Assembly: GCA_001820095.1 (NCBI GenBank)
Contig: MHOO01000003.1
Span: forward strand, 987 to 64,986
DNA length: 64,000 bases
From: Candidatus Staskawiczbacteria bacterium RIFCSPHIGHO2_01_FULL_39_25
GTDB taxonomy: Bacteria; Patescibacteriota; Minisyncoccia; Minisyncoccales; Staskawiczbacteraceae
Reading direction: 5' to 3'
Shown: positions 1,977 through 51,912 of the stretch, one piece after another
Layout of the letters: every line of letters starts with the position of its first letter
How positions within the stretch are numbered: the stretch's first letter is position 1
The notes under the pieces: model-generated
What the model saw: only the letters and a program-made list of their open reading frames with translations
What the model was told of the DNA's origin: nothing
Databases searched by the model: none
Made by a program: the position numbers and the translations under genes

Positions 1977-2110
1977 TTAAAAATTCGAAATTCGAATAGG
2001 ACCTTACAGGGATGACCTGTGGGTCAAGCGAAATTCGAAACAAGTTTTGAAAATTCGTTAGTTTGGAATTTTGGATTTGTTTTGGATTTCGGATTTCGTG
2101 CTTCGGATTT
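1977..2110. repeat. Heptamer-array hairpin element, family C (CGAAATC/GATTTCG units), copy 1
   Basis: On the minus strand it reads TAA|ATCCGAAGCACGAAATCC directly after the rpmB stop. The same junction follows alaS at 25088. Confidence 0.85.
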
Positions 2111-2297
2111 ATACTTTTGCCATTCTTTTAATGCATTTCGCGCACGCTAGCACTCTTTTGCCGCTGGCTAACCTAGCCCACTGCAAGTTGGGGTATTTTC
2201 TTACCTTTTGAGTCGGATTATATTTTCCTCGTAATTTTACCAACGTCCACGACATTCCTGATTTCTTGCCGCAGATGGTACAGATTTTAGAAGCCAT
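2109..2297 (-). CDS. rpmB: 50S ribosomal protein L28
   Basis: 62 aa; MASKICTICGKK...YPNLQWARL...RVLACAKCIK matches the L28 pattern. Confidence 0.85.
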   Translation of the reverse strand: MASKICTICGKKSGMSWTLVKLRGKYNPTQKVRKYPNLQWARLASGKRVLACAKCIKRMAKV

Positions 2298-2298
2298 A

Positions 2299-2433
2299 AT
2301 TGTGAATTATTCTAATTATACTAATTGTTCTAGTTATTCTAAAGAAATCCTAAATCCTAATTTCTCATTTTGACATTCATCGCTTGGGATTTGATTAGGT
2401 TAATTAGAAATTAGGTCAATTAGAATAATTATA
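2299..2433. repeat. Low-complexity hairpin element, family D (TTCTAAT / ATTAGAA units), copy 1
   Basis: Left arm attattctaattatactaattgttctag... is complementary to right arm ...ggttaattagaaattaggtcaattagaataat. A related copy lies at 41407. Confidence 0.8.
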
Positions 2434-2487
2434 TAGTATCTTATCTTCTCTTTTTTTGCAATGTCTGGTATTATTACATAACATCCT

Positions 2488-3111
2488 ATGGATATCGTAG
2501 TCGCTATATTTTCTTTAATCATTTTACTTTTTTCCGTAATCATCCACGAATTAGCTCATGGCAGTGTTGCGTTTTCTTTGGGCGATCCCACGGCAAAGTA
2601 TGAAAAAAGGTTAACCCTGAATCCCTTAAGGCATTTGGATCCTTTTGGTTCTGTTATCTTGCCACTGCTTTTATTCATCAGCGGCAGCGCCGTATTAGTG
2701 GGATGGGCAAAGCCAGTGCCTATAAACCCCTATAATTTTAGAGACCAAAAATGGGGAGCATTCAAAGTTGCCATTGCGGGGCCGTTATCAAATATTGCCT
2801 TGGCATTATTTTTTGGGCTTGCCATACGGGGCATTCCTTATGATGTTTTTTTGCAGGTTCCCGGACTTTTTTTGATTTTTTCTTTCATTGTAAGGATAAA
2901 TTTAATGCTTGCTATTTTTAACCTGGTGCCAATTCCTCCCCTTGATGGTTCATGGATGCTTTTTAAATTATTGCCTGATAGCCTAGAATGGGTAAAAACA
3001 TTTTTGCAGCAATACGGAATCTATATTTTAATATTCCTGTTGTTTTTTGGAGGATTGTACGGAGTAAACTCTATTGCAGAATACTTTTTCCGCCTATTTA
3101 CAGGAATATAG
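2488..3111 (+). CDS. M50-family (site-2 protease-like) membrane zinc metalloprotease
   Basis: HELAHG zinc motif in the first TM helix, multiple TM helices, NLVPIPPLDG motif. Confidence 0.8.
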   Translation: MDIVVAIFSLIILLFSVIIHELAHGSVAFSLGDPTAKYEKRLTLNPLRHLDPFGSVILPLLLFISGSAVLVGWAKPVPINPYNFRDQKWGAFKVAIAGPLSNIALALFFGLAIRGIPYDVFLQVPGLFLIFSFIVRINLMLAIFNLVPIPPLDGSWMLFKLLPDSLEWVKTFLQQYGIYILIFLLFFGGLYGVNSIAEYFFRLFTGI

Positions 3112-3121
3112 TCGAACCCTG

Positions 3122-3150
3122 TTGACTTGATTTGCAATATTTGTTAAACT
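3122..3150 (+). promoter_or_regulatory. Candidate sigma70-type promoter of the str operon
   Basis: TTGACT (3122-3127), 17-nt spacer, TAAACT (3145-3150). Confidence 0.45.
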
Positions 3151-3377: not shown

Positions 3378-3794
3378 GTGCCAACAATACACCAGTTAAT
3401 TAAAAAACCCAGAAAAAGCATACAAGCCAAAAAGAAGGGCGTGGCTTTGCATTACGGTTTTAATGTATTGCAAAACAAGCCTTCGCACTATCCATCTCCG
3501 TTTAAAAGGGGGGTATGCATCAAGGTATTTACCCAAACTCCTAGAAAACCAAACTCTGCGTTAAGAAAAGTAGCCAGGGTTAAATTGTCAAATGGCATGG
3601 AGGTAACCGCCTATATTCCAGGGGAAGGCCATAATTTGCAAGAACACTCAGTGGTATTAATTAGGGGGGGAAGAGTAAAGGACTTGCCCGGAGTCAGATA
3701 CCACATTGTGAGAGGTGTGCTAGATACTACAGGGGTTGAAAACAGGAAGCAGGGAAGGTCAAGGTATGGGTCAAAGATGCCTAAAGCTAAATAA
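3378..3794 (+). CDS. rpsL: 30S ribosomal protein S12
   Basis: GTG start; [11 protein letters not shown]...[18 protein letters not shown]. Confidence 0.97.
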
Positions 3795-3821
3795 TTTTCA
3801 AATTGTAAATTGTAAATTCAC

Positions 3822-4292
3822 ATGCGAAGGGCCTATAAAAAACACAAAGTTGCCCCGGACACCTTATACCAAGACGTACAGGTTGCCCAATTGATCAACA
3901 AGGTGATGACCCAGGGGAAAAAGTCAACCGCACAAAAAATTGTGTACATGGCTTTTGATGCCATAAAACAAAAAACCCAAAAAGAGCCCTTGGAGGTTTT
4001 CAAGCAAGCGGTTGAAAATGCTTCTCCCGTATTAGAGGTAAAGCCAAAGAGGATCGGGGGAGCCACGTATCAGGTACCTATGGAGGTGCGGCAGGAACGG
4101 AGGATCTTTTTATCGTTAAAATGGATTATTGACGGAGCAAGGTCTGGAAAAGGCAAATCAATGGCAGAAAAGCTTAGCCAGGAGATCATGAACGTAGCCA
4201 ACAACGAAGGCATGGCAATGAAACGGAAAAACGATATGCATAGAATGGCAGAGGCAAACAAGGCTTTTGCTCATTTTGCGCGCTCTCGCTAG
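3822..4292 (+). CDS. rpsG: 30S ribosomal protein S7
   Basis: 156 aa; [15 protein letters not shown]...AFAHFAR. Confidence 0.97.
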
Positions 4293-4294
4293 AA

Positions 4295-4402
4295 CGTGAA
4301 TTCAGTATCTTGTATCTAGTAGCTAGAATGGAATTTTGAATACAGAATTCAGGATTCTTTTATTCTATTCTAGCTTCCAGCTGCTAGCTCCTAGATTCAA
4401 AT
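4295..4402. repeat. MITE-like palindromic element, family B, copy 1
   Basis: Starts ACGTGAAT just after the rpsG stop. Arms are 7-nt units (GTATCTT/GTAGCTA versus TAGCTTC/TAGATTC). Confidence 0.85.
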
Positions 4403-6532: not shown

Positions 6533-6662
6533 AACGTGAATCTGGCAGCTAGAAGCTTGAATCTTGAATAGAATACAGAATTCTGAATAATCGTGGCAAA
6601 GCCTATATTCTGAATTCAATATTCCATTCAAGCTACTAGATACTCTATTCTAGATTCTCACA
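6533..6662. repeat. MITE-like palindromic element, family B, copy 2
   Basis: ACGTGAATCTGG...TAGATTCTCAC; imperfect palindrome between fusA and tuf. Confidence 0.85.
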
Positions 6663-8252: not shown

Positions 8253-8303
8253 TAGTATAGTTAAAATTAAACAATTGTTAACTTTTCCATGATATTTTTT
8301 GAT

Positions 8304-8363
8304 TCACCCGATCAAATAATTTTGCAAAGCAAAATTAGCGCAAGGCGCTATTTGACCGGGTAA
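8304..8363 (+). ncRNA. Three-helix structured element, family H, copy 1
   Basis: Outer stem acccgatcaaa/tttgaccgggt encloses hairpins attttgc-aaa-gcaaaat and tagcgc-aagg-gcgcta. The second copy at 37105 has the same architecture with different hairpin sequences. Confidence 0.6.
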
Positions 8364-8393
8364 AAATATTATAGAATAACAACATTGCCATTG

Positions 8394-8416
8394 AACTGGG
8401 CAATTGCCCAGTTTTT
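8394..8416 (+). terminator. Terminator-like stem-loop 15 nt upstream of the rplC start
   Basis: aactggg-caattg-cccagtt followed by ttttt. Confidence 0.45.
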
Positions 8417-8430
8417 CATTAGAAACAAAG

Positions 8431-9030
8431 ATGAAATTCATTTTAGGAAAAAAAATTGAAATGTCCCAGATGTTTGATGAAAAGGGAAAAGTAATCCCCG
8501 TAACTTTGATTTCAGCGGGGCCATGCGTAGTATTGCAGAAAAAAACCAAAGAAAAAGAAGGATACAATGCCCTGCAGGTGGGTTTTATAAAAATTGAAAA
8601 AAAGAGTAAGGTTAAGAAAACGATGAAGGGAAAAGAATATAGGTACATAAAAGAATTTTTAGTTATTAATGATCAATTATCCAAAAACGTTGGCGATGCA
8701 ATTAATCTTGCTGAATTTAAAGAAGGAGATAAGGTAAATATAGTGGGAATTTCCAAGGGAAAGGGGTTTCAAGGAGCAGTGAAAAGGCATGGGTTTTCAG
8801 GCAGGAATGCAACCCATGGCGCCAAGCACGAAGCCAGAACTGTCGGATCAATCGGGCAAAGGTTTCCTCAGCATACGATCAAAGGGAGAAGAATGCCAGG
8901 AAGGATGGGATACGAAAGGGTTACCGTAAAAAATTTAATAGTCGCAAAAATTGACGCAGAAAATAATATTTTGGCGTTGAAGGGAGCCGTACCGGGACAT
9001 AGAGGTACGTTGCTAGAGATTAGAGGATAG
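8431..9030 (+). CDS. rplC: 50S ribosomal protein L3
   Basis: MKFILGKKIEMSQMFDEKGKVIPVTLI...GFQGAVKRHGF. Confidence 0.95.
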   Translation: MKFILGKKIEMSQMFDEKGKVIPVTLISAGPCVVLQKKTKEKEGYNALQVGFIKIEKKSKVKKTMKGKEYRYIKEFLVINDQLSKNVGDAINLAEFKEGDKVNIVGISKGKGFQGAVKRHGFSGRNATHGAKHEARTVGSIGQRFPQHTIKGRRMPGRMGYERVTVKNLIVAKIDAENNILALKGAVPGHRGTLLEIRG

Positions 9031-9045
9031 GGCGCTTACGGAAGT

Positions 9046-9185
9046 CTTTTGCAATGATGTTAAAAGTACCGATAGTCGAAATTGCCAGCGCAATTTCGCT
9101 ATCTAAATTCTCGGCAGTTTGCGCCGCCAAAGGCGGCGACCATGCCAAACTGCCTGCGAAATTTACTTTTAACATCACTGCAAAA
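9046..9185 (+). ncRNA. 140-nt multi-helix structured element, family G, copy 1 (rplC-rplD spacer)
   Basis: P1 9046-9068/9163-9185 (23 bp). P2 is gatag/ctatc plus cgaaattgc-cagc-gcaatttcg. P3 is ggcagttt/aaactgcc enclosing cgccgcc-aaa-ggcggcg. Junction sequences are identical to the copy at 16276. Confidence 0.65.
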
Positions 9186-9246
9186 GTGAAAATCTTTTCC
9201 ATGCGCTAAAGTAAAATCTTTTATTAGTAATTAGAAATTTGCAGGC

Positions 9247-9969: not shown

Positions 9970-10407
9970 ATGGCTTTATTTGATTTTTTAAAAAGAAAAA
10001 AGGAAGTAGAGAAAGCGAAAGAAAAAATAAAAAAAGAACCGGAAAAAGGGGCGGATAAGGCTTTGGTTGCAAAGCCAAAGAAAGTCGTGGAATCAGACGC
10101 AGAAAAACACGAGAACAAAAAAAATGTAAAGGGATTTTCCTATAGTATTGTAAAAGAACCTCATATTTCTGAAAAATCAACCTTATTAGCAGAAGGCAAT
10201 AAATATACTTTTAAAGTGGATGGCAATGCCAATAAGCCAGAAATAAAAAGATCAGTTGAAGGAATTTATGGGGTAAATGTCTTGGGGGTAAGTATCATAA
10301 AAATTCCAAAAAAGAAAAGAAGGCTAGGAAAAACCGAAGGGTTCAGAAAGGGGTACAGAAAGGCGGTAGTCACTATTAAGAAAGGGCAAAAGATAGAGGT
10401 ATTTTAA
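9970..10407 (+). CDS. rplW: 50S ribosomal protein L23 with a Lys/Glu-rich N-terminal extension
   Basis: IVKEPHISEKSTLL...YTFKVDGNANKPEIKRSVEGIYGV. ATG 9970 is chosen because the upstream ORF part lies in repeat B3. Confidence 0.9.
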   Translation: MALFDFLKRKKEVEKAKEKIKKEPEKGADKALVAKPKKVVESDAEKHENKKNVKGFSYSIVKEPHISEKSTLLAEGNKYTFKVDGNANKPEIKRSVEGIYGVNVLGVSIIKIPKKKRRLGKTEGFRKGYRKAVVTIKKGQKIEVF

Positions 10408-10425
10408 ATTAGTAATTAGTAATTC

Positions 10426-11274
10426 ATGAAGACGTATAAACCAACTACACCAAGCCGAAGAGGAATGACTGGAATTGACTTTTCTTTGCTTACCAAGAAA
10501 AAAGCAGAAAAGAGCCTTTTGAAATATGTCAGAAGAAGCGTTGGAAGGTCCAAAGCATCAGGAAGAATTACCGTACGACATAAAGGCGGAGGGGTAAAAA
10601 AACTCTATAGGATTATAGAATTCAGCCAGAGCATTATGGATGCGCCCGCGAAGGTGATTGCCTTAGAATATGACCCTAATAGGACCGCATTTATTGCACT
10701 AATAGAATATCCTTCAACAGTTTCGGGAAAAGTCCCAAAAAGACAATATATTATCGCCCCGCAGGATTTAAAAGTTGGCGATAGTATTATTTTTTCAGAT
10801 AAGGCGCTTCTTACGGCTGGAAACAGAATGAAGCTAAAAAATATATCGGTGGGGACTGCAGTGTATAACATTGAATTAGAGCCGGGCAGGGGAGGAATTT
10901 TAGTAAGATCAGCGGGGTCAGCAGCCCAAGTATTAGCGCAAGAGCACAGCTTTACCAACTTGAAAATGCCTTCGGGCGAAGTAAGAAGAGTAAAAGATGA
11001 ATGTTTTGCTTCTATAGGAATGGTTTCAAATCCAGAAAACAGATTTTATACGGTAGGAAAGGCAGGCAAATCAAGGCTAAAGGGAAGAAGGCCGCATGTG
11101 AGGGGAAGTGCCATGAATCCTGTTGACCATCCGCACGGAGGGGGCGAGGGCCGCCAGCCCATTGGATTAAAACATCCAAAAACTCCATGGGGTAAACCAG
11201 CATTAGGAGTGAAAACAAGATATCGAAAAAAGTGGACAAACAAATATATTATCAGCCGCAGGAAAAAGAAGTAA
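10426..11274 (+). CDS. rplB: 50S ribosomal protein L2
   Basis: RGSAMNPVDHPHGGGEGR. Confidence 0.97.
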   Translation: MKTYKPTTPSRRGMTGIDFSLLTKKKAEKSLLKYVRRSVGRSKASGRITVRHKGGGVKKLYRIIEFSQSIMDAPAKVIALEYDPNRTAFIALIEYPSTVSGKVPKRQYIIAPQDLKVGDSIIFSDKALLTAGNRMKLKNISVGTAVYNIELEPGRGGILVRSAGSAAQVLAQEHSFTNLKMPSGEVRRVKDECFASIGMVSNPENRFYTVGKAGKSRLKGRRPHVRGSAMNPVDHPHGGGEGRQPIGLKHPKTPWGKPALGVKTRYRKKWTNKYIISRRKKK

Positions 11275-11276
11275 CG

Positions 11277-11392
11277 TGAATATAGAATCTGGTATCTGGA
11301 AGCTAGAATGGAATAAAGAATAGTGAATGTGTATGAAATTCTAAATTCCAAATTCAATTCAAGCTTCAAGATACTAAATTCAAGATTCAAAA
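11277..11392. repeat. MITE-like palindromic element, family B, copy 4
   Basis: CGTGAATATAGAATCTGGTATCTGG...CAAGATACTAAATTCAAGATTCAAA. Confidence 0.85.
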
Positions 11393-11811: not shown

Positions 11812-12291
11812 ATGGAAGTAAAAGTTTCATTGAACAATTTAAGAACGGCGCCACGAAAGTCACGGGAAGTGGTTGATTTAATACGGAATAAAAATGTGGC
11901 ACAAGCTAGGAGCCTCCTTGAGTTTACGGTTAGAAGATCAGCAGAACCTATACTAAAGCTTTTAAATAGCGCGGCAGCTTCGGCAGTACATGATTTTAAA
12001 TTAGAAGAATCTAATTTATACATTTCTAAAGTAACCGTAGATGAGGGGCCGAAATTAAAAAGATGGCATCCTATGTCCCGAGGCAGAGCATATCCTATTA
12101 TCAAAAGAACGTCGCATATTACTCTGATATTGTCAGAGAAATCCGAAGACGGGAGTTTCGGCAGAGCCGAAAACTCTCGCGTCTCGCAAGCACGAAATCC
12201 GAAATCCGAAACCGCCCCAACATTAAAGATTGTTAAAAAAAGCAAGCCAAATCTAAAATCTAAAACCAAGAAAATTAAAAAAAATAAATAA
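11812..12291 (+). CDS. rplV: 50S ribosomal protein L22 with a C-terminal extension of about 50 aa that reads through a family C repeat arm
   Basis: MEVKVSLNNLRTAPRKSREVVDLIR...RTSHITLILSEK core, then SEDGSFGRAENSRVSQARNPKSE... encoded by repeat sequence. Confidence 0.92.
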   Translation: MEVKVSLNNLRTAPRKSREVVDLIRNKNVAQARSLLEFTVRRSAEPILKLLNSAAASAVHDFKLEESNLYISKVTVDEGPKLKRWHPMSRGRAYPIIKRTSHITLILSEKSEDGSFGRAENSRVSQARNPKSETAPTLKIVKKSKPNLKSKTKKIKKNK

Positions 12292-12352
12292 AATTCAAAA
12301 TATGTTTCGAATTTCGATATTCGGATTTCGAATTTCTTTTGCAAAGCAAAAG
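12137..12352. repeat. Heptamer-array hairpin element, family C, copy 2 (the left arm lies inside the rplV ORF)
   Basis: gcacgaaatccgaaatccgaaac (12189-12211) is complementary to gtttcgaatttcgatattcggatttcgaatttc. It ends in the mini-hairpin cttttgc-aaa-gcaaaag just before the rpsC ATG. Confidence 0.85.
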
Positions 12353-12354: not shown

Positions 12355-13029
12355 ATGACTCACAAGGTACATCCAAAAGCATTTAGAATAAAAGGAATGG
12401 AGGATTTCAATATCCGCGGTTTTTATGGCAATAAAATGCCTCAGTATTTAGAGGAAGACTTTTTAATTAAGGATTTTCTAAGGGATAAATTATCGGAAGC
12501 GTCGGTTGCAAATATAGAAATAGAGCATTCTGCAAGTAAATTGAATATTATTATTGAAACAGCAAGGCCAGGGCTGATTATAGGGCGAGGAGGAGAAGGA
12601 GTAGAAATATTAAAGAAAGCCATAGAGCAGAAATTAAAAAATTTGAGAAAAACAAGCATTGGGGCTGCGTTAAAGTCTCAGGTGGGGCAAGTAAAAATAG
12701 ATATTAAAGAAATTAAAAACCCGTGGATTTCTGCGATGCTGGTTGCCCAGATGGCTGCTCAGCAAATTGAAAAAAGGATTCCTTTCAGGCAAGTATTAAA
12801 AAGAAGCATAGAGCGGGTGATGCAGAATAAAGAAGTGAAAGGCATAAAAATGGAGGTCTCAGGAAGATTAAACGGCATTGAAATTGCACGAAAAGAATGG
12901 TTAAAGCAAGGCAGAATGCCCCTGCAAACCATACGGGCAGATATTGATTATGCCCAAACGGAAGCGTATTGCACCTATGGAGCCATTGGGGTAAAAGTAT
13001 GGCTATATAAAGGAGAAAAGTTTGAATAA
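12355..13029 (+). CDS. rpsC: 30S ribosomal protein S3
   Basis: KVHPKAFRI...RPGLIIGRGGEG...SGRLNGIEIAR. Confidence 0.96.
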   Translation: MTHKVHPKAFRIKGMEDFNIRGFYGNKMPQYLEEDFLIKDFLRDKLSEASVANIEIEHSASKLNIIIETARPGLIIGRGGEGVEILKKAIEQKLKNLRKTSIGAALKSQVGQVKIDIKEIKNPWISAMLVAQMAAQQIEKRIPFRQVLKRSIERVMQNKEVKGIKMEVSGRLNGIEIARKEWLKQGRMPLQTIRADIDYAQTEAYCTYGAIGVKVWLYKGEKFE

Positions 13030-13110
13030 CAATTGACAATTGACAATTGACAATTGACAACGGTGCATTTAGCTCGTTGGTCAAATGTTAAATGTTAAAA
13101 GTCAAATGTA
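13030..13110. repeat. Heptamer-array hairpin, family A, copy 2
   Basis: TAA|CAATTGACAATTGACAATTGACAATTGACAACG...GGTCAAATGTTAAATGTTAAAAGTCAAATG. Confidence 0.9.
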
Positions 13111-13124
13111 TAAGCATGAGCTTA

Positions 13125-13532
13125 ATGATGCCGAAAAAAGTAAAACACCGAAAGTGGCATAAGGGAAAGACTAAAGGCGTGGAAACAAGAGCAACGGAAT
13201 TGAATTTTGGTAGTTTTGGCTTAAAGGCAATGGGGACTAAATGGATAACCGCCCGCCAAATTGAATCAGCTCGGCGTTACATTATCAGATACATGAAAAA
13301 GGGAGGCAAGTTATGGGTAAGGATTTTCCCAGACAAGCCGGTAACTTCAAAAGGGGAAGAAGTGCCGTTGGGAGGAGGCAAAGGGGCGGTTCACCATTAT
13401 GTATACCCTATAAAACCAGGAAGAATGATTTTTGAAGTGGATGGATTAAAAGAGGAGGTGGCCAGGGAGGCCTTAGTGGGAGCCAGCATCAAGTTGCCAA
13501 TTAAGACAAAATTTGTTAAAAGAGAGAATTAA
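13125..13532 (+). CDS. rplP: 50S ribosomal protein L16
   Basis: MMPKKVKHRKWHKG...ITARQIESARR. The upstream ATGs lie in the repeat arm. Confidence 0.95.
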   Translation: MMPKKVKHRKWHKGKTKGVETRATELNFGSFGLKAMGTKWITARQIESARRYIIRYMKKGGKLWVRIFPDKPVTSKGEEVPLGGGKGAVHHYVYPIKPGRMIFEVDGLKEEVAREALVGASIKLPIKTKFVKREN

Positions 13533-13613
13533 CAAATTTTGTCCTTAAGACTAATTTGTTAAAAGAGAGAATTAACAAATTTTGTCCTTAAGACTAATTT
13601 GTTAAAAGAGAGC
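13511..13613. repeat. 43-bp tandem repeat, 2.4 copies; the first copy is the 3' end of rplP
   Basis: atttgttaaaagagagaattaacaaattttgtccttaagacta starts at 13511, 13554 and (partial) 13597. Each unit contains the 10-bp hairpin aatttgttaa/ttaacaaatt. Confidence 0.95.
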
Positions 13614-13913: not shown

Positions 13914-14146
13914 GCAAGAAGAAATTAACAGGAATTGTGGTCTCTGATAAAATGCAAAAAACTGCTGTGGTTAAGGTAGAAAGAATTAAAGAACACCCTA
14001 AATATAAAAGAAGGTATAAAATCCATACCAAGTATAAGGCCCACGATGAAAATAAAGAATATAAAGTGGGAGATAAAGTGGTGATTGAGGAAACCGCGCC
14101 AATTAGTAAAGATAAAAAGTGGAAAGTAATTTCGAAAAACAATTGA
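13910..14146 (+). CDS. rpsQ: 30S ribosomal protein S17
   Basis: KKLTGIVVSDKMQKTAVVKVER...KYKAHDENKEYKVGDKVVIEE. The TGA stop lies inside the first unit of repeat A3. Confidence 0.93.
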   Translation: MSKKKLTGIVVSDKMQKTAVVKVERIKEHPKYKRRYKIHTKYKAHDENKEYKVGDKVVIEETAPISKDKKWKVISKNN

Positions 14147-14921: not shown

Positions 14922-15482
14922 ATGCAGAAATTAAAAGAAAAATATAATAAAGAAGTAGTGCCTTTGATGATGGAGAAATTCGGTTATAAAAATCCGATGG
15001 CGGTTCCTAAAATCACCAAAGTCACCCTTAATACTTCTTTTGGCAAGGAGATTGTAAATAAAACTTCCGGCGAACGTGATAAAATGCATGCTTTAGTATT
15101 GCAGGATATGGGTTTGATTGCAGGACAAAAGCCCCGATTGGTAAAATCAAAGAAATCAATTGCTGGATTCAAACTTCGTGAAAGTTTGGAAATTGCTGCG
15201 ATGGTAACCTTAAGGAAAGGCAGGATGTGGGATTTTTTAGAAAGGTTAATTTACCTTTCTTTGCCAAAGTCGCGAGATTTTAAAGGGCTTGAACCAAGAG
15301 GGGTAGATAATGGCGGCAATCTTAACATTGGATTTCGCGAACACATAAACTTTCCCGAGATTTTTACTGAAAAAGAAAAAACAATTCTTGGGCTGGAAGT
15401 TACGGTTTCTACTAATGCTAAGAAAAGGGAAGAAGGGTTAGAATTATTCAGGTTAATGGGATTCCCAATTAAAGAAAAGTAA
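14922..15482 (+). CDS. rplE: 50S ribosomal protein L5
   Basis: LKEKYNKEVVP...NPMAVPKITKVTLN...GNLNIGFREHINFPE. Confidence 0.96.
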   Translation: MQKLKEKYNKEVVPLMMEKFGYKNPMAVPKITKVTLNTSFGKEIVNKTSGERDKMHALVLQDMGLIAGQKPRLVKSKKSIAGFKLRESLEIAAMVTLRKGRMWDFLERLIYLSLPKSRDFKGLEPRGVDNGGNLNIGFREHINFPEIFTEKEKTILGLEVTVSTNAKKREEGLELFRLMGFPIKEK

Positions 15483-15566
15483 CAATTGACAATTGACAAT
15501 TAACAATTGACAACGTTTCGTAAGATTCATTATGTCAAATGTTAAATGTCACATGTTAAATGTCAG
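15483..15566. repeat. Heptamer-array hairpin, family A, copy 4
   Basis: TAA|CAATTGACAATTGACAATTAACAATTGACAACG...TATGTCAAATGTTAAATGTCACATGTTAAATGTCA. Confidence 0.9.
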
Positions 15567-15571
15567 GTAAC

Positions 15572-15759: not shown

Positions 15760-15870
15760 ACGTGAATCTAGAATCTGGTATCTTGTAGCTGGAATACCTG
15801 TCTGCGCAGGCAGGAAATAAAGGAATAACGAATTCAAGCTTCAAGATTCAAAATTCAAGATTCTCACTAA
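15760..15870. repeat. MITE-like palindromic element, family B, copy 5, with a GC-rich apical palindrome
   Basis: ACGTGAATCTAGAATCTGGTATCTTG...; apex cctgtctgcgcaggcagg at 15797-15814. Confidence 0.85.
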
Positions 15871-16262: not shown

Positions 16263-16275
16263 GGCGCTTATAGGG

Positions 16276-16415
16276 CTTTTGCAGCGATTTTAAAAGTACC
16301 GATAGTCGTCCCGACCAGCGTCGGGACGCTATCTAAATTCTCGGCAGTTTATTCCGCTGAAGCGGAAACCATGCTAAACTGCCTGCGAAATTTACTTTTA
16401 AAATCGTTGCAAAAG
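16276..16415 (+). ncRNA. 140-nt multi-helix structured element, family G, copy 2 (rpsH-rplF spacer)
   Basis: Same helices and junctions as 9046-9185, but the hairpins are replaced with compensation: cgtcccgac-cagc-gtcgggacg and ttccgc-tgaa-gcggaa. Confidence 0.65.
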
Positions 16416-16500
16416 AAAAGATATTTCAGTTGTTAAGAATTTTGTAAAAAAAGAGCGCCGATGGATTTTCGACGGTAGCTAGGAAGAGTAGGTTTGAGAG

Positions 16501-16529
16501 TTGACGAAGCACTAAAAATAATATATAAT
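16501..16529 (+). promoter_or_regulatory. Candidate internal sigma70-type promoter upstream of rplF
   Basis: TTGACG (16501-16506), 17-nt spacer, TATAAT (16524-16529). Confidence 0.5.
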
Positions 16530-17598: not shown

Positions 17599-17615
17599 TA
17601 AACTTAAAATTTCAA

Positions 17616-17703
17616 AACGAATTTCCACAAAAAAACGAATTTTCACGAATAAACGAATTCGTGATTCGTGTGGATTCGTTAGTAAATTCGTGGTAATTCG
17701 TTA
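17616..17703. repeat. Imperfect hairpin of CGAAT/ATTCG units (rplR-rpsE spacer)
   Basis: aaacgaatttccac...aaacgaatt | cgtgattcgtgtggattcgtt...aattcgtt. Confidence 0.75.
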
Positions 17704-18843: not shown

Positions 18844-18846
18844 ACT

Positions 18847-20222: not shown

Positions 20223-20226
20223 AAAC

Positions 20227-21146: not shown

Positions 21147-21151
21147 TTTAG

Positions 21152-34220: not shown

Positions 34221-34255
34221 CTTGAAATTCGCCCCAATTTAAAATAATATAAATC

Positions 34256-34368: not shown

Positions 34369-34374
34369 GTTGAT

Positions 34375-35382: not shown

Positions 35383-35384
35383 AA

Positions 35385-36458: not shown

Positions 36459-36537
36459 ATCACATAACCCATAACATAGAACGCGTAACAAAAAAAACGG
36501 CGTCGTAATTTGTTCCATGTTCCATGTTTCATGTTCC
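36459..36537. repeat. Heptamer array (GTTCCAT)n preceding frr
   Basis: tgttccatgttccatgtttcatgttccatg, with ATG every 7 nt; the ORF-track start 36517 lies inside it. Confidence 0.8.
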
Positions 36538-37174: not shown

Positions 37175-37212
37175 GAATTAATTGAGAGAAAAGAAAAAGA
37201 ATTATTATAACA

Positions 37213-37291
37213 ACAATTGACAATTAACCATTGACAATTGACAGGAGTAAGAACGCTCGGTCAAATGTCAAATGTCAAATGTCAAATGTCA
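37213..37291. repeat. Heptamer-array hairpin, family A, copy 9
   Basis: acaattgacaattaaccattgacaattgacagg...cggtcaaatgtcaaatgtcaaatgtcaaatgtca. Confidence 0.9.
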
Positions 37292-38417
37292 CGTTGTGTT
37301 TTTAACTTTACTCATTGCTTTCTTGAGCCTCATAGCCTTAATGATTATCCATGAGTTTGGCCATTTTATCATTGCCAAAAAATTCGGCGTTAAGGTGGAA
37401 GAATTCGGCATAGGGTATCCGCCAAGGATTTTTGGCAAAAAATTCGGGGAAACTATATACTCTATCAATCTGGTGCCGCTGGGGGCCTTTGTGAAAATTT
37501 ATGGAGAAGAAGGCGGGATAGATGATTACCGAAGTTTTGCCAACCTTGCCATTTGGAAACGGATTTTAATTGTCTTGGGCGGCGTCATTGCGTTTTGGGT
37601 GGCGTCAGCCATTATTTTTTCTATTGCGTTTACGATAGGGGCTTTTGTTCCCATTGGAGACCAGGATATCCAAGGGTTTGCTAAAACCCATATTGCCATT
37701 GTGGCAATTGAAAAGGCATCTCCCGCTGATATTGCAGGGTTAAAAACGGGCGATAGGGTGATTAACCTTATTAATGCCAGCCAGAACATAGAGGTTAATA
37801 AAATTGCCGATTTCCAAAAATTTATCCAAGACAATAAAGGGAAATCCATTGCCCTAATTATCAGCAGGGATGGCAAGTATATTCCTTTTACTCTTACTCC
37901 GCGGGCGCAACACGGACCAAATGAAGGTCCTCTGGGCGTTGCGGTGGAAAGAATGGCAGAGGTGATTGAAAAACATCCCTGGTATGAGGCTCCGGTGCGG
38001 GGGACTATTTACTGTGTAACGGCTACGGGCAACGCCGTCAAAAGCATTGTTGACGTTCTGACAAGCATGTTTACAGGAAAAGGAGTTCCTGCGGGAGCGG
38101 AATTTGCCGGTCCTGTTGGCATTACGATCTTTTTGGCGCGGGCGGCTGACTACGGCCTTGGTTTTTTCTTGTATTTCATCGGCTCAATTTCTGTGCTGGT
38201 GGCTTTGTTTAACCTGTTTCCTATTCCTGCTTTAGACGGGGGAAAGCTTTTGTTTTTGATCATTGAAAAAATAAAAGGCAGGCCGGTTTCCGTGAAAATA
38301 GAACAAACATTAACGGTTATATTTTTTATTTTATTAATTTCCATGTCAATTTTTATAACTATTAAGTTTGATATCCCTCGCCTTTCAGATTTTTTTCGGG
38401 CAGGCGTTGGCAAATGA
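37272..38417 (+). CDS. rseP: RseP-type M50 site-2 protease with a PDZ domain. The start is uncertain: ATG 37272 lies in the repeat arm, and in-frame GTG 37296 is an alternative.
   Basis: HEFGHF zinc motif, PDZ-like AGLKTGDRVINL, NLFPIPALDGG. Confidence 0.88.
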   Translation: MSNVKCHVVFLTLLIAFLSLIALMIIHEFGHFIIAKKFGVKVEEFGIGYPPRIFGKKFGETIYSINLVPLGAFVKIYGEEGGIDDYRSFANLAIWKRILIVLGGVIAFWVASAIIFSIAFTIGAFVPIGDQDIQGFAKTHIAIVAIEKASPADIAGLKTGDRVINLINASQNIEVNKIADFQKFIQDNKGKSIALIISRDGKYIPFTLTPRAQHGPNEGPLGVAVERMAEVIEKHPWYEAPVRGTIYCVTATGNAVKSIVDVLTSMFTGKGVPAGAEFAGPVGITIFLARAADYGLGFFLYFIGSISVLVALFNLFPIPALDGGKLLFLIIEKIKGRPVSVKIEQTLTVIFFILLISMSIFITIKFDIPRLSDFFRAGVGK

Positions 38418-38531
38418 TTTTTAATTCAAAATTCAAAAACAATTTAAAAGCACTAATTTAAAAACACGTTTTAATATTTTACATTTATCATTGTTTTTAA
38501 ATTTATCATTTTAAATTTGAAATTATACAAT

Positions 38532-39782: not shown

Positions 39783-40844
39783 ATGCTTAATAAACTTTTC
39801 TCATTTTTATCGCTGGATATGGCCATTGATCTTGGAACGGCCAATTCTTTGGTATACGTTAAAGATAGGGGAATCATTATCAATGAACCGTCCGTGGTGG
39901 CCGTCAATAATAAAACGGGCCAGATTTTGTCTATTGGCGAAGAGGCAAAAAAAATGGTGGGGCGCACTCCTTCCTACATTACTGCCACCAGGCCTCTGGT
40001 CAATGGCGTCATATCAGACTTTGAGGTTACCGAGCAGATGCTCAAATACTTTATTGAAAAAGCGGTAGCCGGCAGCAAGAAAATGTTCCGGTTCGGCTAT
40101 ATGCCGAGGGTCATTATTGGAATTCCCTGCGGAGTCACCGAAGTGGAACGGAAAGCCGTGCGAGACGCCGCCAAGAATGCGGGCGCCAGGACGGTTTTTT
40201 TAATTGAGGAGCCGGTGGCTTCAGCCATTGGGGCAAAGCTTCCCATCCAGGAAGCAGGCGGGAATTTCATTGTTGATATTGGCGGGGGGACTACAGAAGT
40301 AGCGGTAATTTCGTTAGGTGGCATTGTGGCATTCCGTAGCTTGCGGGTGGCCGGAGACAAGCTGAATGATGATATTGTCCAGTTTGCCCAAAAGGAATAC
40401 AAGCTTTTAATTGGTGAAAGGACGGCTGAACATATTAAGATAAACATCGGGTCAGCCATGCCCTTAAAAGATAAAAAAGAGATGCCTATGCGCGGGCGTA
40501 ATTTGGTTACGGGGCTTCCAGAAGAGGTGGTTATTTTCAATGATGATGTGCAGAGGGCATTAGAGCGGTCAGTACGCCAGATTGTAGCTGCCATTAAAAC
40601 CACTATTGAAGAAACCCCGCCAGAACTTCTGGCCGACGTGATGACCAATGGCATTTATCTGGCCGGCGGGGGATCGTTGCTTAAGGGTCTTGATGCGCTT
40701 ATTGCCAGAGAAACAAAAATGCCATGCAAAATTATTGATGACCCGTTGACTTCCGTAGTTCGCGGATCGGGCATGGCGTTAGAAAATATAGAAACGCTGA
40801 TAGGATTGGTGCAGAAGGATGAAGAGTGGGCAGGGCCAATCTAA
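39783..40844 (+). CDS. mreB: Rod shape-determining protein MreB (paralog 2)
   Basis: MAIDLGTANSLVY...IVDIGGGTTEVAVISLGGIV...LAGGGSLLKGLD. Confidence 0.93.
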   Translation: MLNKLFSFLSLDMAIDLGTANSLVYVKDRGIIINEPSVVAVNNKTGQILSIGEEAKKMVGRTPSYITATRPLVNGVISDFEVTEQMLKYFIEKAVAGSKKMFRFGYMPRVIIGIPCGVTEVERKAVRDAAKNAGARTVFLIEEPVASAIGAKLPIQEAGGNFIVDIGGGTTEVAVISLGGIVAFRSLRVAGDKLNDDIVQFAQKEYKLLIGERTAEHIKINIGSAMPLKDKKEMPMRGRNLVTGLPEEVVIFNDDVQRALERSVRQIVAAIKTTIEETPPELLADVMTNGIYLAGGGSLLKGLDALIARETKMPCKIIDDPLTSVVRGSGMALENIETLIGLVQKDEEWAGPI

Positions 40845-40912
40845 TTTTCAATTTTCAATTTTAAATTTTCAATAAGTAGGTATCAAAATTTCGACAAAGC
40901 GAAATTTTGATG
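40845..40912. repeat. Family E element, copy 4, + orientation
   Basis: ttttcaattttcaattttaaattttcaataagtaggtatcaaaatttcgacaaagcgaaattttgatgag. Confidence 0.85.
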
Positions 40913-40937
40913 AGTTTAAAATTTATATAAAAAAAGA

Positions 40938-41121: not shown

Positions 41122-41409
41122 ATGATTTCTAAAGACCAAGTAAAACATATCGCAAAATTGGCGCGGCTGGAATTAACGGAAAAAGAAACGGAAAAAATGC
41201 AGCATGATTTGTCTGCTATTTTGGATTATTTTAATGTCTTAAAAAAGGTAAAGTCCCAAAAAATTAAAACTACTGAAAAGACCGTAGAGTTGGAGAAAGT
41301 AACACGAGAGGACAAGGTGGGTGAGAAACATCCTGGTGAGGCCGGCGACCTGCTTAGATTAGCTCCCAGCACGAAAGATGGATACATTAAAGTGAAGAAC
41401 ATTTTCTAA
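41122..41409 (+). CDS. gatC: Glu/Asp-tRNA amidotransferase subunit C
   Basis: ISKDQVKHIAKLARLELTEKE...ILDYFNVL. Confidence 0.9.
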   Translation: MISKDQVKHIAKLARLELTEKETEKMQHDLSAILDYFNVLKKVKSQKIKTTEKTVELEKVTREDKVGEKHPGEAGDLLRLAPSTKDGYIKVKNIF

Positions 41410-41546
41410 TTTCTAATTATTCTAATTGTTTCTAATTGACCTAAAGAATTCCTAATCTACGAAATCCCAACGCGTCCAGATAATTAGGCATTTTAGAATT
41501 AGGATTTGATTAGAATAATTAGGTTAATTAGTATAATTAGGTTAAT
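41407..41546. repeat. Low-complexity hairpin element, family D, copy 2
   Basis: taatttctaattattctaattgtttctaattgacc...aattaggatttgattagaataattaggttaattagtataattagg. Confidence 0.8.
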
Positions 41547-41548
41547 TC

Positions 41549-48856: not shown

Positions 48857-48913
48857 CTATCTTTAATTGTTTTTTAAAATATGCTACATTTAAAATACTA
48901 AATCCACTACAAT

Positions 48914-50015
48914 ATGGTCCAAATAACTCAAAATATAGAGGGATTAGAGGAGAAAGTCCATTATTTAGTGGACCGCCTTTGATGTAAATGGAAAGCAAAA
49001 AGAGTTAAAGAAGCTGGAAGCAGAAACACAGGCCCCTGAATTTTGGAAAGACCAGGAAAGGGCAACTGCCGCAAGCCAAAAGATCGCTTTTTTAAAAGAG
49101 GAAATAGAAACAATAGAATCACTGAAAAAAGAATTAATTGACCTAAAAGAGCTGGAGTATTTGACAAAAAGCGATGAAAACCTTAAGAAAGAACTAGAAA
49201 AAAAGTGGAGCGTATTGAAAGAAAAAATTGCCAAAGAAGAATTTAGAATTTTCTTATCTGGCAAATACGACCGCAATAATGCGATTATAGAAATATTTTC
49301 GGGGGCAGGGGGTGTGGATGCCCAGGATTGGGCCACGATGCTTTTGAGGATGTATGAGAGGTATTGCGCACAAAAAAGGTTTTCAGTCCAGGTGTTGCAC
49401 CAGTCGTTTGGGGAGGCAGGCGGGCCGGATGGAAGAATTGGCACAAAATCAGCTACCTTGGAAATAAAAGGGAAGTATGCTTACGGCCTTTTAAAAAAAG
49501 AGACGGGAGTCCATAGATTGGTGCGCATTTCTCCGTTTAGTGCCCAAAAATTGCGCCATACATCTTTTGCGTTGGTTGAGGTTTTGCCGGAAATAGAGCA
49601 GCAAGATACAGAAATTGAAATAAAGCCTGAAGAGTTAAAAATAGATACATTCAGGGCATCAGGGCCTGGGGGGCAGTACGTCAACAAAACGGAATCAGCC
49701 ATACGAATTACCCATATACCAACAGGTCTGGTAGTTTCTTCGCAGTCAGAACGGCTGCAAGGCAAGAATAAGGAACACGCCATGAAAATCCTGTATGCCA
49801 AACTGCATCAGTTGCAAGCAGTAGAACATAAAAAAGAGCTGAAGGAAATTAAGGGCGAATCAATTTCTGCGTCTTGGGGGAACCAGATACGGTCATATGT
49901 CCTGCACCCTTATAGGATGGTAAAAGATTTAAGAACGCAGTATGAAACATCGGACACGGAAGGAGTATTGGATGGGGAATTAGATGAATTTATACAGGCC
50001 GAAATAAGAATCTAG
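48914..50015 (+). CDS. prfB: Peptide chain release factor 2, requiring a programmed +1 frameshift at CTT TGA T (48977-48983)
   Basis: Frame 1 is MVQITQNIEGLEEKVHYLVDRL, then TGA. The +1 frame continues DVNGKQKELKKLEAETQAPEFWKDQERA...SGPGGQYVNKTESAIRITHIPTG. Confidence 0.9.
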
Positions 50016-50121
50016 AATCTGGAATCTTGAATCTGGAATAGAATGCTGAATATGGGGCTTCGTATTCTAAATTCCAAATTCAATTCAAGCTACCAGATAC
50101 TAAATTCAAGATTCAAGTTAT
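50016..50121. repeat. MITE-like palindromic element, family B, copy 9
   Basis: tctagaatctggaatcttgaatctggaatagaat...attcaagctaccagatactaaattcaagattcaag. Confidence 0.85.
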
Positions 50122-50124
50122 AAA

Positions 50125-50805
50125 ATGATAAAATTTCAAAACGTTACAAAAATATATCCTCCAGATACTACCGTGTTGCACGACATTTGTTTTGAAGTAA
50201 AAGAAGGCGAGTTTGTTTCTATTGTAGGCAAGTCGGGTGCCGGAAAGACTACGTTAGTAAAATTGATTCTAGGGTTAGAAGAACCAACTTCTGGCAGTGT
50301 GTTTTTTGCGGGCAAAAATATCAGCGAAGCTTACGGCGCAGATCTCCAGGAAATACGGAGAAAAATAGGCGGTATTTACCAGGATTATAAGCTTCTGCCC
50401 GCAAAAACCGTTTATGAAAATGTAGCTTATGTCATGGCTGTAGAGGGTAAAGAAAACGAAGAAATCATTTCCCAAGTGCCTAAAGTATTAGAGGTTATAG
50501 GCCTTGCGGAAAAAAGCAATAACTTTCCAAAAGAGCTTTCGGGCGGGGAGCAGCAAAGGCTGGCCATTGCAAGGGCTTTGGTAAACCACCCCGATGTGGT
50601 TATTGCCGACGAGCCAACGGGAAACTTGGATCCCTATAACACCTATGAAGTCATAAGGCTTTTGCAGAAAATCCATCAGTCAGGCAAAACGGTTATTTTA
50701 TCAACTCACGATCGGGAAATTGTGAATAAATTAGGCAAGAGGGTCATTACCATAGAAAACGGCAGGGTTGTCCGCGACGAAGAAAAAGGAAGATTCATTA
50801 TCTAA
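50125..50805 (+). CDS. ftsE: Cell division ATP-binding protein FtsE
   Basis: GKSGAGKTT Walker A, LSGGEQQR signature, VVIADEPTGNLD Walker B. Confidence 0.95.
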   Translation: MIKFQNVTKIYPPDTTVLHDICFEVKEGEFVSIVGKSGAGKTTLVKLILGLEEPTSGSVFFAGKNISEAYGADLQEIRRKIGGIYQDYKLLPAKTVYENVAYVMAVEGKENEEIISQVPKVLEVIGLAEKSNNFPKELSGGEQQRLAIARALVNHPDVVIADEPTGNLDPYNTYEVIRLLQKIHQSGKTVILSTHDREIVNKLGKRVITIENGRVVRDEEKGRFII

Positions 50806-50947
50806 TTTGAAATTTGAAATTTGAAATTTGAATTCAATATTTCAATGATTAAATATTGCAATTTGAAAACACGACGTCGGCTTTTAATCATTTCAAATTC
50901 AATTAATTCAAATTGATTTCAAATTGTAAATTGTAAATTTCAAATTC
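50806..50947. repeat. Family F element (ATTTGAA)n / (TTCAAAT)n hairpin, copy 2
   Basis: TAA|TTTGAAATTTGAAATTTGAAATTTGAATTC...CATTTCAAATTCAATTAATTCAAATTGATTTCAAATTGTAAATTGTAAATTTCAAATTC. Confidence 0.85.
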
Positions 50948-51868
50948 GTGAATATGCTTACTAATCTAAAACGGGTTTTTCATTTTGCTTTTATTGATTT
51001 TTATCGCAACAAAGGAATGTCCGTTGCCGCAATTTTTGTATTGACTATTACCATGTTACTGGTAACCGGCCTTTTCTTTATGCGAGGCGTTAGCAATTTT
51101 TTAGTTGAAACCATACAAAATAAAATTGATATTGCCGCGTACTTTAAAGCAGATACTGAAGAAAAAGATATTTTAACCGTTAAAGAAGAAATTTTAAAAG
51201 ATTCTCCTGATATTAAAAGCATCAAATATGTATCACGAGAAGAAGCGTTGAATGATTTTATTGAAAAGCATAAAGATAATAATACTTTTTTAAAATCGTT
51301 AACCGAGGTAGGAGAGAACCCATTTTTAGCTTCTTTGAATATTATTACCAATGGAAGTACTGCCCAATATGAGCAAGTTAGTAATACCCTGCAAAAAGAT
51401 GAGTACGATACATTCATTGAGAAGGTTGATTTTTCTGAAAAAAAAGGTACTATTGAGAAGATTTTCTCAATCACGTCAAATATCAATAAATTTGGGTTAA
51501 TCTTGGGAGCTGTGTTGGTATTGGTAGCGGTATCAGTGGTTTTTAATACCATAAAGCTGATTATTGAATCATCAAAAGACGAAATTGCTACTATGAAAAT
51601 TGTGGGGGCTTCTACCTGGCTGATTAAGGCGCCCTTTATCATTCAGGGAGCAATTTTTGGAGCTATAGCGTTTACTACCTGTCTTTTAGTAACTCTAGCG
51701 GTTACGTACTTTTTATCGCCAGGGTTATCGGTTATTATGCCTGGATTCATCCTGTTTGAATATTTTATACTGAATCTCTGGATGATTATATTAATCCAAT
51801 TAGGTTTCGGGGTTGGATTAGGAATCGCTTCAAGCTTTATTGTGGTAAGAAAGTACCTTAAAGTCTAA
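50948..51868 (+). CDS. ftsX: Cell division permease FtsX
   Basis: Four-TM topology with a large periplasmic loop; IATMKIVGAS motif; adjacent to ftsE. Confidence 0.9.
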   Translation: MNMLTNLKRVFHFAFIDFYRNKGMSVAAIFVLTITMLLVTGLFFMRGVSNFLVETIQNKIDIAAYFKADTEEKDILTVKEEILKDSPDIKSIKYVSREEALNDFIEKHKDNNTFLKSLTEVGENPFLASLNIITNGSTAQYEQVSNTLQKDEYDTFIEKVDFSEKKGTIEKIFSITSNINKFGLILGAVLVLVAVSVVFNTIKLIIESSKDEIATMKIVGASTWLIKAPFIIQGAIFGAIAFTTCLLVTLAVTYFLSPGLSVIMPGFILFEYFILNLWMIILIQLGFGVGLGIASSFIVVRKYLKV

Positions 51869-51912
51869 TTTGAAATTTGAAATTTACAATTTGAAATCAA
51901 TTTGAAATATTA
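51868..51912. repeat. Family F heptamer array, copy 3 (single arm)
   Basis: aatttgaaatttgaaatttacaatttgaaatcaatttgaaat. Confidence 0.75.

Follow-up and report, generated by a model that had tools for sequence, protein, structure and literature searches.

The 64,000-nucleotide (nt) window, by which we mean the whole stretch of DNA analysed here, carries the str-S10-spc-alpha ribosomal protein region together with further housekeeping operons, almost all on the plus strand, and many of its gene junctions are occupied by imperfect hairpins whose two arms are tandem arrays of 7-nt units (heptamers). With a probability of roughly one half, they belong to families of small palindromes, dispersed elements of the repetitive extragenic palindrome (REP), REPIN or miniature inverted-repeat transposable element (MITE) kind, with slippage-prone heptamer arms, which have colonised the junctions between the stop codon of one gene and the start codon of the next and are tolerated there. 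The further genes of the window are infA, rpmJ, rpsM, rpsK, rpsD, rpoA, alaS, murA, two mreB genes, holB, frr, rseP, proS, gatCA, prfB and ftsEX. The window was 100% identical to contigs of the assembly GCA_001822005.1 and of a Rifle aquifer metagenome, and the nearest named genomes were those of Candidatus Staskawiczbacteria, a lineage of the candidate phyla radiation (CPR, Patescibacteria). It was compared with the S3-centred operon of 80 species-representative genomes and 80 metagenome contigs, in which 27 genes were placed per locus by tblastn; three-digit L numbers denote the sequences compared.

Period-seven arrays and their folding

Tandem periodicity was scored in sliding stretches of 14 nt with at least 12 matches at lag k, with first-order Markov shuffles as the control. 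At period seven, 36 arrays were detected in the window compared to 0.5 in the shuffles, while the other periods from 4 to 12 gave only 0–5 arrays. A stricter threshold left 17 arrays of period seven, against 0 in the shuffles, and nothing at any other period. Also Tandem Repeats Finder reported dozens of period-7 arrays, from position 1981 to 51908. The lag-7 periodicity described in an earlier note on this DNA thus clearly exceeds that of shuffled sequence, and the coordinates given there for the arrays were right, the first array being at 1976–1997 and the last at 51866–51912.

Single long hairpins were predicted in 16 spacers, with free energies from -25 to -44.5 kcal/mol and z-scores from -2.3 to -7.3 relative to 200 dinucleotide shuffles. 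In family A the stem consists of helices of 5–6 bp separated by 1x1 or 2x2 internal loops, and the folds reproduce the single mismatch per unit, A opposite A, that the note had pointed out. In the 18 family A copies, 91% of the cells pair in register, compared with 19–36% when the partner is slid. The common build is two complementary arms of about four heptamer units each, interrupted once per unit, in elements of 75–140 nt (median hairpin span 81 nt), and each unit combines a conserved core helix of 4–6 bp with one or two variable or mismatched positions. As the note had described, many families of tandem heptamers share one construction. The elements are imperfect extragenic palindromes in many copies, about 36 per 50 kb. 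Across the Staskawicz-type loci, 407 arrays (median 3.9 units per array) were made of 115 distinct units with 20% G+C, and no motif common to the 115 canonical units was found beyond AT-richness.

Two statements of the earlier note had to be narrowed. Nearly every spacer had been described as filled, but of the 65 junctions between positions 23 and 52015 a period-7 array was present in 31; 50 junctions were at least 45 nt long and 15 were tight (<45 nt, most of them <25 nt), and two short spacers carried mini-arrays. The families distinguished there, A–F and a GTTCCAT type, all exist, but the family D element at 41.4 kb and an element at 17.6 kb have periods of 9 and 18 nt.

Ten contigs, obtained from different samples with three assemblers, contained the same arrays base for base, with 99.4–100% identity, and the arrays are therefore not artefacts of assembly or polishing. 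Several contigs of the same population do end near repeat-rich spacers, so the repeats trouble assemblers, but an artefactual origin can be dismissed for practical purposes, the arrays of about 30 nt being shorter than one read and homologous families being present in dozens of other genomes.

Copying, nesting and slippage of the elements

Compared along the whole element, family A copies at non-orthologous junctions of the window, L033, L036 and L064 were 79–87% identical, and the likeness extends to the order of the variant units in the right arm. Between the same genomes, the neighbouring ribosomal genes were only 44–59% identical at third codon positions. Family A also includes two subfamilies, each common to several genomes. 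The family B hairpin immediately 5' of tuf (6534–6662; this and the elements named below lie on the plus strand unless otherwise stated) was 85–94% identical among the window, L029 and L038, in which the third positions of tuf were 53–58% and the DNA just upstream 49–55% identical. As judged from these identities, the element sequence is conserved beyond neutrality, and synonymous sites are saturated between these genomes. Nesting was also observed, with GC-rich mini-hairpins in family B copies and other elements in copies of families I and E. That families and subfamilies recur at different junctions of different species shows that whole elements are copied, either to a new junction or from one genome to another. 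Shared families, conservation and nesting together are in keeping with elements that are dispersed by movement or exchange and constrained in sequence, and do not fit independent local slippage.

The number of units within an element drifts by replication slippage, which is still active. Over 20.7 kb, assembly L001 differed from the window at two positions only, both in family A arrays: one substitution and one whole ACAATTG unit, which is present in the S3–L16 hairpin of the window (13027–13112) and absent from that of L001. Copy number thus varies by whole units between assemblies, and in some copies the two arms have unequal numbers of units.

A purely local origin, in which a stretch of 7 nt at a junction was duplicated in tandem, heptamers being the unit that slippage favours, and a fold-back copy provided the second arm with no transposition involved, would accord with this polymorphic whole-unit indel. 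It would also accord with single-arm mini-arrays that resemble a duplicated 'stop codon + 4 nt', such as the one at 10401–10429 in the 18-nt L23–L2 spacer (TAAATTAG-TAATTAG-TAATTCA) and that at S19–L22 in L014 (TAACCAG TAACGAG TAATAAG TAATATG), and with the stop triplets in 7-nt register with the true stop that are described below. Furthermore, heptamers are the over-represented class of long simple sequence repeats in many bacteria, for which polymerase slippage and a polymerase footprint have been proposed (PMC4692102). The present arrays share with that class at least three head-to-tail 7-nt copies beyond chance. Repeats of the class would be expected to arise locally and not to be copied as a larger unit, however, whereas here whole elements of 80–120 nt are shared between junctions and genomes, and near-identical elements, including the order of variant units and the loop-proximal sequence, are found at more than one junction and in more than one species. 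Neither the subfamilies common to several genomes nor the nested elements fit local slippage, and it cannot explain element sequences far more conserved than synonymous sites. As the sole mechanism it is largely refuted by the shared families at non-orthologous sites, and we consider it improbable.

A tandem repeat of another kind, with a 43-nt unit in 2.6 copies, lies over the L16 stop at 13501–13612, and in five further assemblies of this population it is shorter by one copy.

Filled and empty junctions among relatives

Both filled and empty sites were found when orthologous spacers were compared among relatives, as the earlier note had proposed. The ribosomal protein junctions were in one of two states: empty, with TAA, 1–15 nt and ATG or with overlapping genes, or filled by a hairpin of 70–140 nt. 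The Chloroflexi outgroups had no such hairpins and other Parcubacteria few. The filled genomes formed two clades in a neighbour-joining tree of 12 proteins, in which the window grouped with L011 and L024. Sister genomes could differ drastically: L036 was filled at 18 of 18 junctions and L031 at two of 18, and L017 at 16 of 18 while L018 was filled at six of 18. The closest relative found, L135 (85% S3 identity), was empty at S19–L22, L22–S3, S17–L14 and S14–S8, all of which are filled in the window, and filled at L23–L2 and L14–L24, both of which are tight in the window. Also the family present at a given junction varied, S19–L22 being occupied by a CAATTGA, ACGAATA, AAATCCT or CGAAATC type depending on the genome, and one family could occupy different junctions across genomes. 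Gain and loss of elements take place at individual junctions.

A small palindromic element that is not built of heptamers (…GCTCGGTCGGAATGAAAATAAATTTTCACTCCTCCCTC…) was seen at junctions of the otherwise mostly empty L031, L035, L040, L048, L050, L135 and L139, and nested in the L22–S3 junction of L033.

Placement at stop and start codons

At the approximately 265 hairpin-bearing junctions, the hairpin started at a median of 1 nt past the stop codon, touching or overlapping it in 48%, and ended at a median of 9 nt before the next start codon, the linker being 45% A. In 7-nt register with the true stop (+7, +14, +21 and +28), stop triplets had a density of 0.176 compared to 0.06 out of register, and this at lag 7 only. 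All three reading frames were closed within 28 nt in 25% of the left arms and in 8% of shuffled arms. Such phasing of the stops is a necessary consequence wherever heptamer arrays with stops in them run over the end of a gene, but it does show these arrays to be the preferred occupants. For the right arms, no clear signal of ATG triplets in phase with the true start codon was found.

In several cases the upstream protein owes its stop codon or its C-terminal residues to the element, for example S17 and L22 of the window, S14 of L036 and L064, and proteins that end at the TAG or TGA of the first units of family B. The last approximately 30 residues of L22 are encoded by the left arm and loop (12190–12291) of a family C element (12190–12340) whose right arm lies in the L22–S3 spacer. 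S17, whose remodelled end takes in 14137–14146, terminates at a TGA within the left arm of the family A hairpin of S17–L14 (14137–14227), and S14 ends in the same way in L036 and L064.

The spurious open reading frames (ORFs) and false N-terminal extensions that the earlier note had traced to the elements are real effects, the peptides being translations of the arrays. Public gene calls disagree on the start of L23 by about 190 nt (168 and 106 amino acids), and the longer call crosses the family B hairpin of L4–L23 (9879–9966), which thus lies within a false N-terminal extension. In CPR genomes these elements inflate intergenic DNA and break assemblies, and they lead gene callers astray, with spurious ORFs, N-termini that are wrongly extended and altered C-termini of L22, S17 and S14.

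Approximately 80% of the copies were in one orientation according to nhmmer. This test is circular in part, as sense copies had served to train the models and each element is almost a palindrome. On the minus strand, a 62-amino-acid ORF (2109–2297), which by eye we take to be ribosomal protein L28 (rpmB; MASKICTICGKKSGM...), is followed by a family C element with CGAAATC/GATTTCG-type arms (1976–2108, minus strand) and then by tRNA-Pro. When its reverse complement was compared with the copies at 12190 and 25088, this element proved to be sense to the minus-strand genes, so that the copy behind rpmB follows the strand of that gene. Inverted copies, on the minus strand in the same transcriptional context, were found in family B at S7–fusA (4293–4402, by best match) and mreB–holB (35378–35499; -44.5 kcal/mol, z -7.3) and in family E at murA–mreB (34235–34369, the inner hairpin with an insertion).

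Possible functions in RNA or DNA

The hairpins might instead be selected cis-acting elements of the mRNA, either hairpins between cistrons at which the transcript is processed or its ends are protected, in the manner of the RNase III sites between phage T7 genes or REP stabilisers, or platforms for a protein with a footprint of about 7 nt (cold-shock-domain, S1) that would organise re-initiation in a lineage lacking Shine-Dalgarno sequences. Their location is confined to transcribed junctions in highly expressed operons of co-directional genes, where they flank starts and no Shine-Dalgarno motifs are visible. The element upstream of tuf is kept at the same position in three divergent genomes, the 80:20 orientation and the copy behind rpmB agree with this explanation, and the same design recurs in a phage late operon. 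Binding by S1, Csp and CsrA has also been proposed for TAACTGA heptamers (PMC4679880). Changes from G-C pairs in family A gave 15 G-U and 5 A.C. Over 277 spacers, however, the antisense strand folded slightly better than the sense strand (-27.7 vs -26.1 kcal/mol; 174 vs 101), which led us to reject a sense-strand RNA signature and makes the G-U asymmetry unusable as evidence. Covariation in the 18 family A copies was not above that of shuffles because there is too little variation. Also the lack of elements at the same junctions of close relatives and the tolerance of inverted copies in the same context speak against selected mRNA elements, and the 115 unrelated units argue against one sequence-specific binder. 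We regard a selected function in processing, stability or re-initiation of the mRNA as possible and as the main rival of the favoured reading, but as rather unlikely.

Still less credible is that the arrays are binding sites in double-stranded DNA, that is, heptad iterons for a ribbon-helix-helix or nucleoid protein that would organise the chromosome or regulate transcription. Heptad arrays bound by ribbon-helix-helix proteins exist, the omega repressor of plasmid pSM19035 binding 7-bp heptads, and the constant period with varying sequences, the direct and inverted units and the symmetry of sense and antisense folding would all be compatible with a feature of the DNA. To bind more than 100 different heptamers, however, a genome of presumably about 1 Mb would have to encode many proteins, the arrays lie strictly at stop–start junctions and not at promoters, and no candidate regulator is adjacent.

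The hairpins did not correspond to known RNA families in Rfam: with gathering and permissive thresholds only tRNAs passed, and the hairpins gave chance-level matches to miRNA precursors (E about 0.7–0.9). Consensus promoters and terminators were likewise rejected, as scans showed no enrichment and the hairpins lack T runs. Terminator-like sites with a G+C-rich stem and a T run numbered 20 compared to 18.4 expected, and none of them was a heptamer hairpin; ordinary terminators of this kind occur elsewhere in the window, for example at 31.08 kb and 43.54 kb.

Phage and plasmid occurrences

An exact 19-nt (CAATTGA)n probe matched 42 viral stretches of IMG/VR with 28–65% G+C, many of them with 6–14 period-7 arrays. 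One of these, L105 (IMG/VR 3300018475_000788, 58% G+C), encodes portal, capsid and tape-measure-like proteins, and nearly every junction of its structural operon holds a hairpin of the type (GGACAAT)4 ... (ATTGTCA)4, AATTTTC or ACGCAAA, with one mismatch per unit. The nearest GenBank relative of L105, a human-gut phage, is without such hairpins. AT-rich heptamer hairpins were seen in the phage contigs L105, L096, L113 and L132 of 57–58% G+C, and the units CAATTGA, AATTTTC and ACGCAAA of the phage contigs also occur in the CPR window. Plasmids of Planktothrix and Annamia carry direct CAATTRA arrays. No annotated homologues were found in GenBank phages or PLSDB plasmids, the occurrences being confined to unannotated human-gut phage contigs and the cyanobacterial plasmids with direct arrays.

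Elements of the window

In addition to the elements located above, family A hairpins lie at S19–L22 (11725–11809), where TAA is followed by (CAATTGA)4 ... (GTCAAAT)4, at L5–S14 (15480–15567), infA–rpmJ (26850–26937), rpmJ–rpsM (27054–27143, the right arm being a perfect (ATGTCAA)5) and frr–rseP (37206–37298), and hairpins of its subtype 2 at S5–L15 (18250–18331) and L15–secY (18764–18845). Family B hairpins occupy L2–S19 (11274–11391), S14–S8 (15760–15868, with a nested GC-rich mini-hairpin CCTGTCTGCGCAGGCAGG), L6–L18 (17136–17253), adk–map (21008–21149, with nested CCTGCCTGCGCAGGCAGG) and prfB–ftsE (50006–50119). A further family C hairpin is situated 3' of alaS (25088–25190).

The family D hairpin of gatC–gatA (41407–41548; TTCTAAT/ATTAGAA) has a super-period of 9/18 nt, and a family D-like hairpin with TTCTAAT/ATTAGAA and AAATCCT units, to which no strand was assigned, separates the divergent rpmB and M50 peptidase genes (2299–2437). 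Family E is represented at rpsM–rpsK (27532–27665), with (AATTTTC)4, an inner hairpin and an AATTTCA array, and 3' of the second mreB (40842–40920), while at secY–adk (20146–20236) AATTTTC-type arrays flank a GC-rich inner hairpin. Family F forms a hairpin at ftsE–ftsX, (AATTTGA)4 ... (AAATTGT/TTCAAAT) (50803–50947), and a single arm at ftsX–tRNA-Gln (51866–51912). Family H, with ACATAAC.../(GTTCCAT)4, lies at holB–frr (36459–36541) and is also present at L15–secY in L014, L027, L036 and L038.

Two hairpins depart from these families: that of L18–S5 (17614–17703) has an ACGAATT core with 9/18-nt and not 7-nt spacing, and that of rseP–proS (38417–38530) is a degenerate AATTCAA/TTTAAAT hairpin, weak at -13 kcal/mol. 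Single or short arrays consist of AAATTGT in 2.7 copies, a single arm without hairpin that fills the 27-nt S12–S7 spacer (3793–3822), ATAAATC in four copies just 5' of L6 (16552–16580) and CTGTTCA in three copies 5' of rpoA (28797–28821).

Other structured regions of the operons

A long-stem repeat of about 170–195 nt (GGGCGCTTA...) lies directly 3' of the L3 and S8 stops (9031–9207 and 16263–16459; -83 and -105 kcal/mol), and a 60-amino-acid ORF has been called on the minus strand across the first copy. The repeat had no match in Rfam. Analogous long hairpins ('GGGGCGCTTCAG...') were seen at the same two junctions in L011, L017, L033 and L038. In filled relatives the spacers are 340–840 nt long at L3–L4 (L011, L017, L033, L038, L064) and at S8–L6 (L011, L017, L024, L033, L036, L038, L064). 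Most of these long spacers hold small antisense ORFs of 49–85 amino acids, some starting with MEKWEYK or MQKWEYK, which at a guess may be DUF4177-like, and several are followed by a terminator-like hairpin (AAAAAAAGAGCGCC...GGCGC). The S8–L6 spacers of relatives also have a TTGAC-N17-TATAAT-like promoter 5' of L6, and in the window (16494–16529) TTGACG-17-TATAAT at 16501–16529, 5' of L6, is the best promoter match in the region.

The S10–L3 spacer (8253–8460) contains a conserved structured region (-52 kcal/mol) whose sequence is recognisable in at least 13 genomes, including 'empty' ones, and which is probably not a mobile element but a leader with a regulatory role. A coding-looking gap of 304 nt (48857–49160) precedes the release factor 2 ORF with its PCRF/RF-1 domain, which suggests either the usual programmed frameshift of prfB or a mis-called start.

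Proposed explanation

According to the reading that we favour, small non-coding elements of 75–140 nt would have colonised the short stop–start junctions of co-directional housekeeping operons in some lineages of Candidatus Staskawiczbacteria. Each element sits at the stop codon, often supplying it, and leaves intact about 9 A-rich nt before the next start. The hairpin would fold out of the mRNA, keeping the stop and the next start close with the coding sequence untouched, and the elements may survive in essential operons because of this placement and folding. The periodic interruption of the stem would avoid a long perfect palindrome or duplex, which would be lost from the DNA by deletion or cleaved as double-stranded RNA. 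The mobilising activity would act in trans and be encoded elsewhere in the genome. For the 7-nt unit there are two non-exclusive readings, a preference of slippage or selection for stops in all three frames.

Several observations weigh against dispersed mobile elements. Comparison of filled and empty junctions revealed no target-site duplication, and there is no conserved terminal tag; a REP-type tag was rejected, with GTAG at only 7.6% of the 3' feet compared to a background of 2.6%, and CGTC at about 1%. No transposase, RAYT or reverse transcriptase was present among the scanned proteins of the window, and no parent element was found. Neither was a transposase or another candidate mobilising gene found in the long L3–L4 and S8–L6 spacers of relatives, which hold the small antisense ORFs instead. 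The conservation between genomes could reflect function, not mobility. The wholesale filling or emptiness of operons looks more like a genome-wide switch than like independent insertions, and such a switch could correspond to the presence or loss of a factor. The single-arm 'stop codon + 4 nt' arrays show that some arrays can arise in place, and the constant 7-nt period across 115 different units is not accounted for.

A more speculative idea, to which we give little weight, is that the hairpins are written by a dedicated and transferable machinery and not by slippage together with an ordinary transposase. This machinery could be insertion templated by single-stranded DNA or RNA at stop–start junctions of transcribed operons, or a nucleic-acid-binding protein with a 7-nt footprint, which would both select for and use heptamer-phased arms. 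Its presence or loss would explain why sister genomes are wholly filled or wholly empty. It would also explain how more than 100 unrelated units keep the 7-nt period with about four units per arm, and why the same design occurs in CPR and in a phage contig and the same units as direct arrays in cyanobacteria. Reports of heptamer repeats between genes go back to 1990, with no agreement so far on their origin or function, and such a machinery, if true, would finally solve this 35-year-old puzzle.

The lineage offers an unusually clean natural experiment, with essential and universally conserved operons that are filled in one genome and empty in its sister. The dozens of families, the precise placement between stop and start and the parallel in a phage late operon make the matter testable by gene content and metatranscriptomics.

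Comparison with known systems

The only paper found that links Staskawiczbacteria, repeats and intergenic DNA concerns TIGR-Tas. TIGR arrays consist of guide units of about 36 nt with box C/D-like motifs and adjoin a tas gene, which encodes a Nop-domain protein. They were rejected as a model, as the period here is 7 nt, the elements are dispersed singly between housekeeping genes, and no Nop-domain protein was present among the window proteins scanned.

The Correia or NEMIS elements of Neisseria are MITEs of 100–150 nt that fold back beside genes, are co-transcribed as possible RNase III substrates, and create or remove gene ends; they are bounded by defined terminal inverted repeats and duplicate a TA target. 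The present elements are similar foldback hairpins beside genes, but neither a target duplication nor a terminal consensus was found in them. The small dispersed repeats of Nostoc punctiforme, as reportedly described by Elhai et al. in 2008, are said to lie in tandem heptamers and to be very small, mobile and nested, sharing structure and not sequence.

The claim that the construction principle is undescribed held in part. Intergenic heptamer tandem repeats are documented, but in the literature no description was found of a systematic heptamer hairpin, of the saturation of operon junctions or of an occurrence in CPR bacteria.

REP, REPIN and bacterial interspersed mosaic elements, mobilised by RAYT of the Y1 type (PMC3116915, PMC2817692, PMC3733652), are likewise imperfect extragenic palindromes, many of them between co-directional genes, and REPINs resemble the present elements in being non-autonomous hairpins of about 70–110 nt made of two inverted halves and variable in presence between strains. 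Unlike REP, the present elements have no conserved GTAG/CGTC head, their arms are internally periodic, and one genome holds many families where REP has one to three; unlike the case of RAYT-mobilised REP, no RAYT gene was seen in the window.

TAACTGA direct repeats lie just 5' of start codons, also within ribosomal protein operons, in Beggiatoaceae, cyanobacteria and Bacteroidetes (MacGregor 2015, PMC4679880). They are like the present arrays in having stops in all frames, in lying near starts or overlapping the end of the upstream ORF, in occurring inside ribosomal protein operons and in contexts poor in Shine-Dalgarno sequences, and in a suspected horizontal spread, and the family A unit CAATTGA resembles TAACTGA. 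In contrast to the at least 115 units and the hairpins found here, the TAACTGA sets of BOGUAY have a single unit sequence, are direct in 169 of 170 cases and have no predicted structure (PMC4679880). For the heptamers upstream of recF and recO in Nostoc, regulatory effects but no mechanism have been described (bioRxiv 10.1101/2022.06.06.494920).

The intergenic heptamer repeats of cyanobacteria (STRR; Calothrix, Nostoc) and of Xanthomonas, such as GGGAATC and GGGGAYT, are abundant in Nostoc and Xanthomonas and include some inverted pairs (PMC4692102). Like the present arrays, they are 7-nt tandems of few copies with many different units per genome, intergenic and often within operons, variable between close relatives, in some cases paired in inverted orientation, and attributed to slippage. 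Here, however, complementary arrays of about four units systematically pair up as a single hairpin that is broken at regular intervals, the units are rich in A and T and not in G, and whole hairpins make up conserved dispersed families in a CPR host.

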